Below, piece by piece: positions 461-2,913 of a stretch of 7,507 nucleotides of DNA. Origin of the DNA: Escherichia coli (GTDB lineage Bacteria > Pseudomonadota > Gammaproteobacteria > Enterobacterales > Enterobacteriaceae); the NCBI RefSeq assembly GCF_003334315.1, contig NZ_QOWR01000092.1. One strand, written 5' to 3'. The notes beneath the pieces were generated by a model. That model ran no database searches and was not told the DNA's origin. It saw only the letters and a program-made list of their open reading frames with translations. Numbering within the stretch: position 1 is the first letter of the stretch; every line of letters starts with the position of its first letter. A program made the position numbers and the translations under genes.

Positions 461-468
461 CATTCTCT
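461..468. repeat. Target-site duplication (left copy), CATTCTCT
   Basis: Exact 8-bp match to 2906..2913, immediately outside both IS termini; 8 bp is the expected duplication length for the IS66 family. Confidence 0.85.
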
Positions 469-496
469 GTAAGCGTCGTCTGAGTACCGTCTGGTC
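469..496. repeat. IS66 left terminal inverted repeat (IRL), imperfect
   Basis: GTAAGCGTCGTCTGAGTACCGT... aligned by hand against the reverse complement of the right end (GTAAGCGTGCAGTGAGAACCGT...): first 8 nt identical, about 20 of 28 positions matching. Inner boundary is approximate. Confidence 0.7.
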
Positions 497-551
497 CCGA
501 ATCCAGGATCCTGTAACTTAAGCACCCACTTATTTTGCAGGTGGACACCTC

Positions 552-935
552 ATGCGCGCTAAAGAAAGACTTCCCCGGAAACACTATTCCCCTGAATTCA
601 AAATGGAACTGGTCAGGCTGGCTCTTGAAGAAGAAGGCAGTATTGCCGCACTGGCCCGGAAACATGACGTCAATGATAACCTGCTCTTTAAATGGATAAG
701 GCTCTGGCAGCGTGAAGGGCGGGTCTGTCGGCCCCGAAAAAACTCATCGTCGCTTCCTGCCCTGATACCCGTGCAGCTTCAGGCGGGCTCTTCTCTCCCA
801 ACCTTCGAACTACCATCCTGCTCTCCTCCCGCTACCTGCCACATAAAATGTCGGGGAGGAGAAATAACACTGACTCATCCCTCTGCTGAACTCATGAGCA
901 CTGTCCTGCGCGAACTGATGCGGGGGCCTGTATGA
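552..935 (+). CDS. tnpA: IS66-family accessory protein OrfA (TnpA), 127 aa
   Basis: First ORF of the element. ATG at 552 is preceded by AGGTGGA. Size and position match IS66 orfA, and its stop overlaps the orfB start (ATGA). Confidence 0.85.
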   Translation: MRAKERLPRKHYSPEFKMELVRLALEEEGSIAALARKHDVNDNLLFKWIRLWQREGRVCRPRKNSSSLPALIPVQLQAGSSLPTFELPSCSPPATCHIKCRGGEITLTHPSAELMSTVLRELMRGPV

Positions 936-1279
936 TAAATCTTCCCGCAGGCACAAAAATCTGGCTGGTTGCCGGTATCACCGATATGCGCAACGGCTTC
1001 AATGGCCTCGCCGCAAAGGTGCAGACCGCGCTGAAAGATGACCCGATGTCCGGCCACGTCTTCATCTTCCGGGGACGCAGCGGCAGTCAGGTAAAACTGC
1101 TCTGGTCCACCGGCGATGGTCTGTGCCTGCTGACAAAGCGACTAGAACGTGGTCGCTTCGCCTGGCCCTCAGCCCGCGATGGCAAAGTGTTCCTGACGCC
1201 GGCGCAACTGGCGATGCTGATGGAAGGTATCGACTGGCGACAGCCAAAGCGGTTACTGACATCCCTGACCATGTTGTAG
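932..1279 (+). CDS. tnpB: IS66-family Orf2 accessory protein (IS66 TnpB; unrelated to the IS200/IS605 TnpB nuclease), 115 aa
   Basis: Protein MINLPAGTKIWLVAGITDMRNGFNGLAAKV...GDGLCLLTKRLERGRF is recognisable as the conserved IS66 Orf2 family. Translationally coupled to orfA. Confidence 0.9.
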   Translation: MINLPAGTKIWLVAGITDMRNGFNGLAAKVQTALKDDPMSGHVFIFRGRSGSQVKLLWSTGDGLCLLTKRLERGRFAWPSARDGKVFLTPAQLAMLMEGIDWRQPKRLLTSLTML

Positions 1280-1328
1280 CGCTCTTTATCCTGGTTGTCG
1301 CAGAATAAGCCTGGTAAAATACAGGCTT

Positions 1329-2864
1329 ATGAACGACACCTCTTCTGACGACATCCTTCTGCTGAAACAGCGCCTGGCCGAACAGGAAGCGTTGATCCAC
1401 GCCCTGCAGGAAAAGCTGAGCAACCGGGAACGCGAAATAGACCATCTGCAGGCGCAACTGGATAAGCTGCGCCGGATGAACTTCGGCAGTCGTTCCGAAA
1501 AGGTATCCCGCCGTATCGCGCAAATGGAAGCTGACCTGAACCTGCTGCAGCAGGAAAGCGATACGCTGACCGGCCGGGTGGATGACCCGGCAGTGCAGCG
1601 CCCGCTGCGTCAGACCCGCACCCGCAAACCGTTCCCTGAGTCACTCCCACGGGATGAGAAGCGGCTGCTGCCGACTGAGCCGTGTTGCCCGGAGTGCGGT
1701 GGTTCGCTGAGTTACCTGGGTGAGGATGCCGCCGAACAGCTGGAGCTGATGCGCAGCGCCTTCCGGGTTATCCGGACAGTCCGTGAAAAGCATGCCTGCC
1801 GTCGGTGCGATCGCATCGTTCAGGCCCCGGCTCCTTCGCGCCCCATCGAACGGGGGATCGCCGGACCGGGGCTGCTGGCCCGAGTGCTGACCTCAAAGTA
1901 TGCAGAGCACATACCGCTGTATCGCCAGTCGGAGATCTATGCCCGCCAGGGTGTAGTGTTGAGTCGTTCTGTACTGTCGGGCTGGGTGGATGCGTGTTGT
2001 CGTCTGCTGGCACCGCTGGATGAAGCCCTTCAGCACTATGTCCTGACCGACGGCAAACTCCATGCTGACGATATGCCTGTCCCGGTGCTGTTGCCGGGCA
2101 ATAAGAAGACGAAGACCGGGCGCTTATGGACGTACGTTCGAGACGACCGCAACGCCGGATCAGCGCTGGCCCCCGCAGTGTGGTTCGCTTACAGCCCGGA
2201 CAGAAAAGGTATCCACCCTCAGACCCATCTTGCAGGCTTCAGTGGCGTACTGCAGGCTGATGCCTACGCCGGGTTCAACGAGCTCTACCGCGACGGCCAT
2301 ATAAAGGAAGCCGCGTGCTGGGCCCATGCCCGCCGAAAAATCCACGATGTTCACGTCCGTACCCCGTCAGCCCTGACGGAGGAGGCGCTGAAACGGATCG
2401 GCGAGCTGTATGCCATCGAGTCGGAGCTCAGAGGTAAAAGAGCAGAGGAACGGCAGGCAGTCCGGCACCAAAAAGTGCTGCCGCTGCTGGCGTCACTGGA
2501 GGGGTGGCTGCGGGAGAAACAGAAAACCCTCTCAAGGCACTCAGAACTGGCGAAGGCGTTCGGGTATGCGCTGAACCAGTGGCCGGCGCTGACCCGCTAT
2601 GCAGAAGATGGCTGGGTGGAGGTGGATAATAACATTGCCGAAAACGCCCTACGACTGGTCAGTCTGGGGAGAAAAAACTGGCTGTTCTTCGGCTCGGATC
2701 ATGGTGGTGAGCGCGGTGCGTCACTGTACAGTCTTATCGGGACGTGCAAATTAAACGGCGTGGATCCGGAACGCTATCTGCATCATGTACTTGATGTCAT
2801 CGCCGACTGGCCTGTGAACCGGGTGGGTGCTCTGCTCCCGTGGCGGGTTACTCTGCCTGCCTGA
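1329..2864 (+). CDS. tnpC: IS66-family transposase TnpC (DDE type), 511 aa
   Basis: N-terminal heptad/leucine-zipper-like region (LLLKQRLAEQEALIHALQEKL...), a CxxC...CxxC zinc-finger block (CPECGG...CRRCDR), and a C-terminal catalytic region typical of IS66 transposases. Third ORF of the element. Confidence 0.92.
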   Translation: MNDTSSDDILLLKQRLAEQEALIHALQEKLSNREREIDHLQAQLDKLRRMNFGSRSEKVSRRIAQMEADLNLLQQESDTLTGRVDDPAVQRPLRQTRTRKPFPESLPRDEKRLLPTEPCCPECGGSLSYLGEDAAEQLELMRSAFRVIRTVREKHACRRCDRIVQAPAPSRPIERGIAGPGLLARVLTSKYAEHIPLYRQSEIYARQGVVLSRSVLSGWVDACCRLLAPLDEALQHYVLTDGKLHADDMPVPVLLPGNKKTKTGRLWTYVRDDRNAGSALAPAVWFAYSPDRKGIHPQTHLAGFSGVLQADAYAGFNELYRDGHIKEAACWAHARRKIHDVHVRTPSALTEEALKRIGELYAIESELRGKRAEERQAVRHQKVLPLLASLEGWLREKQKTLSRHSELAKAFGYALNQWPALTRYAEDGWVEVDNNIAENALRLVSLGRKNWLFFGSDHGGERGASLYSLIGTCKLNGVDPERYLHHVLDVIADWPVNRVGALLPWRVTLPA

Positions 2865-2877
2865 CCAGCTTCACTTC

Positions 2878-2905
2878 GTCAATACGGTTCTCACTGCACG
2901 CTTAC
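2878..2905. repeat. IS66 right terminal inverted repeat (IRR), imperfect
   Basis: Reverse complement begins GTAAGCGTGCAGTGAGAACC, matching IRL. Inner boundary is approximate. Confidence 0.7.
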
Positions 2906-2913
2906 CATTCTCT
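2906..2913. repeat. Target-site duplication (right copy), CATTCTCT
   Basis: Exact 8-bp match to 461..468, directly abutting the right IS terminus. Confidence 0.85.

Follow-up and report, generated by a model that had tools for sequence, protein, structure and literature searches.

Does an insertion sequence (IS) with intact ends, an exact target duplication and complete genes record a recent jump of an active element, or an old one that has simply been inherited? The question is raised by a stretch of 7,507 nucleotides of Escherichia coli DNA (contig NZ_QOWR01000092.1, assembly GCF_003334315.1), in the following termed the window, in which positions 469-2905 form a complete 2437-bp IS66-family insertion sequence on the + strand. 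An earlier note made from the letters of the window had favored the first answer and regarded the element as probably active. Our comparison with other genomes supports the second, to which we assign a probability of about 0.9: a complete ISEc8-related element entered an already dead IS21-family remnant by a single transposition, and the insertion is old and inherited. The overall importance of the locus is small, as the element is routinely annotated; its only mildly interesting point is a variant allele of the transposase, T249M.

Anatomy, target and inheritance of the insertion

Two copies of the 8-mer CATTCTCT, at 461-468 and 2906-2913, flank the element exactly, and an identical 8-mer is expected at two fixed positions by chance with a probability of only 4^-8 (~1.5e-5). 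The element opens with GTAAGCGTCGTCTGAGTACCGT and closes with ACGGTTCTCACTGCACGCTTAC. Its 22-nt terminal inverted repeats are imperfect (17/22 matched), begin with GTAAGCG and share the start GTAAGCGT, a feature of IS66-family termini, whose repeats span ~20-30 bp. The inverted repeats of IS66 and IS679 reportedly begin with GTAAGCG as well, and all three open reading frames (ORFs) of such elements are said to be required. An 8-bp target duplication is made by the IS66 family (PMC6778807, citing Machida 1984).

The + strand of the element is taken up by three ORFs, all of full length against their family profiles. The product of tnpA aligns with NF047595 over profile positions 2-113 of 113 (75.7 bits, cut-off 74) and carries the Pfam helix-turn-helix (HTH) domain HTH_Tnp_1; the tnpA ATG is preceded at 7 nt by AGGTGG, and at 932-935 the stop of tnpA and the start of tnpB overlap in ATGA. 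TnpB covers positions 1-90 of 90 in NF033819 and 2-100 of 101 in PF05717; this Orf2-type protein has no relation to the TnpB nuclease of IS200/IS605 elements. TnpC extends over positions 1-283 of 284 in PF03050 (E 1.7e-103), scores 462 bits against NF033517 (cut-off 180) and also contains the domains LZ_Tnp_IS66, zf-IS66 and DDE_Tnp_IS66_C. A DDE transposase preceded by overlapping tnpA (HTH) and tnpB (Orf2) genes is the layout of the IS66 family. Repeats, profiles and flanking 8-mers thus bear out the description of an IS66-family element with intact ends, a perfect duplication and three full-length ORFs. As a separate observation, the IS contains a sub-terminal inverted repeat (601-622 and 2855-2876, 22 nt, 18/22), with one arm at the tnpA start and the other at the tnpC stop; roughly 0.1-0.2 such pairs are expected by chance, and its meaning is uncertain.

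The uninterrupted site, which the earlier note had proposed to look for, exists in other genomes. A reconstructed 600-bp empty site, consisting of the left flank, one CATTCTCT and the right flank, matches ~410 complete E. coli genomes (~8%) over the full 600 bp at 99.8% identity; in SMS-3-5 and strain 746, the empty site reads TCATTCCGGACATTCTCTGCCAGGCATATG and contains a single CATTCTCT. Moreover, 13 other sites hold copies that are at least 99.8% identical and all end at the same two bases. These copies measure 2437 bp, apart from one of 2436 bp on an IncI plasmid owing to a 1-bp deletion. Twelve of the 13 each lie between the two copies of a different, perfect 8-bp duplication (GTTAGGCC, TTCCATGC, GAAAAAAT, AGAGGAAG, CAATAGCT, GGTGATGC, ACACACAC, GGTTTTGA, GATCCTGA, AAAAATTC, GATTCAAC and TTTCTTTC), and the thirteenth, in pGE3, adjoins ISEc23, with flanking 8-mers that match at 7/8 positions. 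The copies, drawn from plasmid and E. coli collections, reside among other places on the IncHI2 plasmid pAPEC-O1-R, on IncF, IncY and IncI plasmids and on the chromosomes of several assemblies, four of the sites lying in one genome. Together with the insertion in the window, this makes 14 sites with near-identical copies, and on this comparative evidence the IS species is clearly a mobile one.

The target lies in a piece of a CP4-44-like genomic island that adjoins cobU in E. coli. In SMS-3-5 and strain 746, an istA pseudogene annotated by PGAP spans the insertion point and reaches the equivalent of position 2993, and ORFs run across the junction of the reconstructed empty site. Since the pseudogene is continuous across the empty site, the element split an IS21-family remnant that was already dead, which agrees with the earlier view of a degraded tract rather than a working gene. 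PGAP labels the istA fragment as a frameshifted partial ‘IS21 family transposase’ and 115-252 as ‘AAA family ATPase, missing N-terminus’; the latter holds the final ~27 residues of an IstB helper ATPase (positions 226-252 of 253 in profile NF006616, E 2e-6). NCBIfam profiles gave no match to either frameshifted istA fragment; both are identified by the PGAP call together with a nucleotide identity of 90% to istA of IS21. The insertion broke no functional gene, and the nearest intact genes lie 0.9 kb (convergent) and ~1.5 kb from the element. A promoter scan of 380-3900 yielded no sigma-70-like site and two terminator-like matches at or below chance, and Rfam and tRNA scans of the window returned no matches.

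Occupied and empty genomes show the same gene order on both sides of the site, namely a 383-aa gene, the IS21 remnant, a 200/205-aa gene and AlpA-like, YagK/YfjJ-type and zinc-ribbon genes. This identical order indicates a simple insertion without rearrangement; the idea that the element separated the alpA module from the left side is not supported, as empty-site genomes are colinear on both sides. One simple transposition would have duplicated the 8-bp target CATTCTCT within the dead IS21-family element, a fused istA/istB remnant of the island, and the insertion would since have been passed on with the island as an old polymorphism.

Several lines of evidence carry this reading. First, a 240-bp probe across the left junction scores the occupied site, with the same position, orientation and duplication, in 295 of 5426 complete E. 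coli genomes (~5%). The exact TnpC of the window was shown at 10 places in public assemblies, together with 9 similar ones (27 contigs read), all at the same site, as were two further carriers that we checked. Second, between the window and other same-site copies there are 0-3 differences per 2437 nt, and in the right flanks of the carriers 0-12 nt per ~4500 (29 per 3677 in RM13516). The divergence of the IS is comparable with that of its flanks; element and island have been changing together. Third, O145:H28 RM13516 carries the element at the same site, in the same orientation and with the same duplication, but reads G1144/C1912/C2074 where the window has A/T/T. These are the bases found at most other sites. 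As the ancestral allele occupies the same site, the insertion would have come first and the three substitutions would have followed later, in place. Gene conversion by another copy in the genome could in principle have given RM13516 its ancestral allele, which would speak against this order of events; substitution in place is the simplest reading. In APEC_AN-25, tnpC at the same site is annotated as a pseudogene with its C-terminus missing, which is decay in place of an inherited copy. Commonly quoted substitution rates are, roughly, 1e-7 to 1e-6 per site per year, at which three changes in 2.4 kb would place the age of the insertion in the order of thousands of years.

Occupied versus empty, the site offers a clean presence/absence marker for CP4-44-like island lineages. 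More generally, intact ORFs, ends and duplication show neither the recency nor the activity of a copy. The E. coli chromosomal site, with the CATTCTCT duplication and its flanks, also turns up in NZ_CP079635.1 (‘Klebsiella pneumoniae plasmid pAI1527P_P1’, 1.04 Mb), an almost unannotated record that is probably mis-assigned or contaminated.

The TnpC allele of the resident copy

Relative to the ancestral allele, the window carries one synonymous change in tnpB and two replacements in TnpC, T195I and T249M, which the resident copy would have gained after insertion. Conservation of TnpC was assessed in a MAFFT alignment of 49 close and 109 distant homologues (n=158; the representatives used are 33-52% identical). 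In the AlphaFold model (pLDDT 90.3), the conserved acidic residues are placed as in an RNase-H-like DDE core: D247 lies together with residue 249 on strand 242-255, D311 directly follows strand 306-309, and E438 is located in helix 435-445. Model and alignment point to D247 (2067-2069), D311 (2259-2261) and E438 (2640-2642) as the putative catalytic triad. A CwAH-rR motif is reportedly conserved between the second Asp and the Glu of IS66 transposases; here, it appears as CWAHARR at residues 330-336, in which C330 and H333 are invariant and R335 and R336 are found in 108/109 homologues. A sequence search for solved structures returned no match to TnpC or TnpB.

The two replacements fall on positions of very different constraint. 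At residue 195 the family varies, and Ile is among the natural residues there. In contrast, residue 249, two positions beyond the invariant D247 and predicted by the model to face the active site, is Thr in 147/158 homologues (105/109 distant, 42/49 close) and Met in none of the 158. Among the 41 most conserved columns, the TnpC of the window departs at 249 and 142 only, and the difference at residue 142 (R142) is common to the whole ISEc8-like clade.

A 51-bp probe centered on nt 2074 separates the M249 from the T249 alleles. The exact M249 allele occurs in 281 records; all 36 that were sampled are chromosomal, and 35 of these 36 hold it in a single place. The one-mismatch T249 allele, found in 187 records, is often present at 2-8 places or on plasmids. 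For the ancestral TnpC (WP_001000406.1), the 10 contexts shown all differ, with four sites in one chromosome, and the element interrupts genes. The only second site found for M249 is on an IncI-gamma/K1 plasmid of E. coli 2011C-4315, where a copy with all three derived bases is flanked by the duplication GAAAAAAT; it is otherwise identical to the window allele, except that a 1-bp deletion at 1510-1512 frameshifts tnpC.

How far these data speak to the activity of the resident copy is a matter of weighing. The single-copy pattern of M249 fits an attenuated resident copy, without proving it. Located beside the presumed first catalytic Asp, T249M may weaken the transposase of this copy, to which we give slightly less than an even chance. 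The stronger claim, that T249M (possibly together with T195I) has largely immobilized the resident copy and made it a naturally attenuated IS, is more doubtful, and we put it forward only tentatively. Attenuation by T249M would explain why M249 is single-copy and T249 multi-copy on plasmids and chromosomes of Enterobacteriaceae.

Several points weigh against attenuation. Ile, Val or Ser occupies residue 249 in 11/158 homologues, so the constraint on this position is not absolute. The presence of M249 on the IncI plasmid means that the allele has moved at least once, by its own transposase or in trans. Finally, the contrast in copy number could stem from plasmid carriage and host lineage rather than from enzyme activity. 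The same old insertion may therefore hold a fully functional copy, in which T195I and T249M are neutral and the single copy reflects a naturally low transposition rate of a chromosomal IS66-type element. The second site of M249 and the tolerated replacements at column 249 favor this alternative, as do the 39 remaining highly conserved columns (of 41), which are all retained, and the clade-wide nature of the R142 difference; the lack of Met in every homologue so close to the invariant Asp and the strong contrast between the alleles in copy number and number of sites tell against it. On balance, neutrality comes close to an even bet and leaves the old, inherited insertion itself untouched. For this copy, the claim of probable activity is in any case not sustained, as the I195/M249 allele is essentially confined to one site and single-copy.

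If attenuation is real, the attenuated copy would persist as a fixed single-copy marker of one island lineage as its unmutated sister allele keeps spreading, and the two would form a natural pair of alleles with which the IS66 transposase, a poorly understood enzyme, could be dissected. For a conserved residue of this enzyme, the T249/M249 pair is an inexpensive experiment already made by nature.

Other readings of the locus and its surroundings

That a still active copy jumped only recently in this strain, the view taken by the earlier note, is very improbable. The intact ends and ORFs, the exact duplication and the mobility of the IS species would speak for such an event, but the same insertion in 295 complete genomes, the substitutions gained in place relative to RM13516, the parallel divergence of IS and flanks and the single-copy state of the allele all contradict it. 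The diversity of serotypes also argues against one very recent clone as the source of the shared insertion; the record names of the carriers include O104:H4, O157:H16, O20:H12 and O145:H28.

Repeated independent insertions into a hot-spot, instead of shared ancestry, are slightly less probable still. The presence of IS150, IS100, ISEc23 and an ISEc27/36-like element nearby in other genomes would suit a hot-spot; against it, all 19 occupied loci examined agree in position, orientation and 8-bp duplication, the carriers have the private set A1144/T1912/T2074 in common, and no target consensus that would force the element into one site is visible among the duplications of the 13 other sites. A coincidental identity of the flanking 8-mers, with the true boundaries elsewhere, can be dismissed, as nothing was found in its favor and the boundaries at 469 and 2905 are upheld by the single CATTCTCT of the empty site and by 13 independent copies that end at the same bases.

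The old insertion sits in an island segment that acts as an IS sink. In other genomes, IS150 lies ~360 bp from the empty site on its right and in strain 746 has IS100 nested within it, and ISEc23 is found to the right of alpA or within a GTPase gene. In the window, 1-77 is the right end of an IS3-family (IS2-group) element and 100% identical to ends that PGAP assigns to the ISEc27/ISEc36 family. All complete E. coli genomes with the island part from the window exactly to the left of position 76; this IS3-family insertion, which lies 393 bp from the IS66-type element on its left side, seems rare or private; as a candidate for a recent event in the window, it is the more plausible of the two. 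At the other edge, 7431-7507 is the end of IS100 (IS21 family), which truncates the gene of a ‘putative zinc ribbon protein’ (7075-7446), so that the product has 123 aa here, compared with 133 aa in strain 55989; among the matches listed, only AHM9C68I, AHM9C61I, MB15, ET490 and GPEC548 are contiguous through this end. The module on the alpA side (3823-7446) is typical of CP4-type islands.

Table 1. Coordinates of the insertion, its genes and the neighboring features in the window.
Feature	Position	Strand	Basis
Target-site duplication, left copy CATTCTCT	461..468	.	single in empty-site genomes
Complete IS66-family insertion sequence, 2437 bp	469..2905	+	100% identical same-site copies in many E. 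coli genomes
Left inverted repeat (IRL) GTAAGCGTCGTCTGAGTACCGT	469..490	+	17/22 complementary to 2884-2905
tnpA, 127-aa HTH accessory protein	552..935	+	NF047595, HTH_Tnp_1
tnpB, 115-aa IS66 Orf2-type accessory protein	932..1279	+	NF033819, PF05717
tnpC, 511-aa DDE transposase	1329..2864	+	PF03050, NF033517, AlphaFold model
Codon 195 ATA (Ile), derived C>T at nt 1912 from ACA (Thr)	1911..1913	+	KYAEHxPLYRQ motif
Codon 249 ATG (Met), derived C>T at nt 2074 from ACG (Thr)	2073..2075	+	allele comparison, homologue alignment
Right inverted repeat (IRR), reverse complement GTAAGCGTGCAGTGAGAACCGT	2884..2905	-	pairs with IRL
Target-site duplication, right copy CATTCTCT	2906..2913	.	single in empty-site genomes
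IstB helper ATPase C-terminal tail, IS21 family, pseudogene fragment	115..252	-	NF006616, PGAP
istA pseudogene fragment, frameshifted, IS21 family, left part	267..468	-	PGAP; 349-468 90.2% identical to plasmid IS21 istA
istA pseudogene fragment, right part	2914..2993	-	contiguous with 267-468 in empty-site genomes
205-aa protein, no NCBIfam match	3823-4440	-	neighboring module
AlpA/excisionase-like HTH protein	4519-4725	-	neighboring module
YagK/YfjJ ‘inovirus Gp2 family’ protein	6252-6821	+	neighboring module
Zinc-ribbon protein	7075-7446	+	neighboring module

Relation to known elements

The element is an ordinary, already annotated member of its family, and all IS66-family features examined (domains, layout, GTAAGCG repeats, duplication and CWAHARR) are present. 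PGAP/RefSeq and other sources name it only generically as ‘IS66 family transposase’, and a literature search for the 2437-bp length together with IS66 yielded nothing useful.

Its closest named relative is ISEc8 of E. coli O157:H7 and Stx phages, which has the same three-gene layout and the same class of 8-bp duplication. TnpC comprises 511 aa, compared with 512 aa in ISEc8-family hits, and is 87% identical to proteins that PGAP assigns to the ‘ISEc8 family’. At the nucleotide level, ISEc8 (ISEC8 as annotated in Stx2 phage 1717) matches with 83% identity over 80% of the element, and the left ~480 bp including tnpA give no megablast alignment to it. The usual ISfinder criterion for the same IS is at least 95% nucleotide or at least 98% amino acid identity. 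With values of 83% and 87%, the element falls below both thresholds; we therefore reject identity with ISEc8 and regard it as a different IS.

ISEc22 and ISEc23 belong to the same family and occur in the same hosts. ISEc22 makes 8-bp direct repeats (PMC4048246) and is listed as 2454 bp (PMC5001619), compared with 2437 bp here, a difference in length that would tell against identity of the two. ISEc23 encodes a TnpC of 537 aa and is annotated separately beside the present element in pGE3 and RM13516. Neither ISEc23 nor ISEc43 can serve as its name, as both are annotated as separate elements. The prototypes IS66 and IS679 share the gene order tnpA-tnpB-tnpC, the 8-bp duplication and a TnpC of the DDE type that contains both a zinc finger and a leucine zipper, but are distant in sequence and differ in hosts and lengths.

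A likeness of another kind is found at the level of the fold. The best Foldseek match to the AlphaFold model of TnpC is the transposase of ISCth4 (IS256 family; PDB 6xg8, 6xgx), with E 2e-9 and a probability of 1.0. Both have a DDE RNase-H-like core, but with 12-13% identity and a TM-score of 0.4-0.5 this is a likeness of fold only, and ISCth4 belongs to a different IS family with a single-ORF organization. The ISCth4 transposase is a copy-out/paste-in enzyme. The modeled likeness of TnpC to this enzyme hints at a bearing on the mechanism of IS66 transposition.

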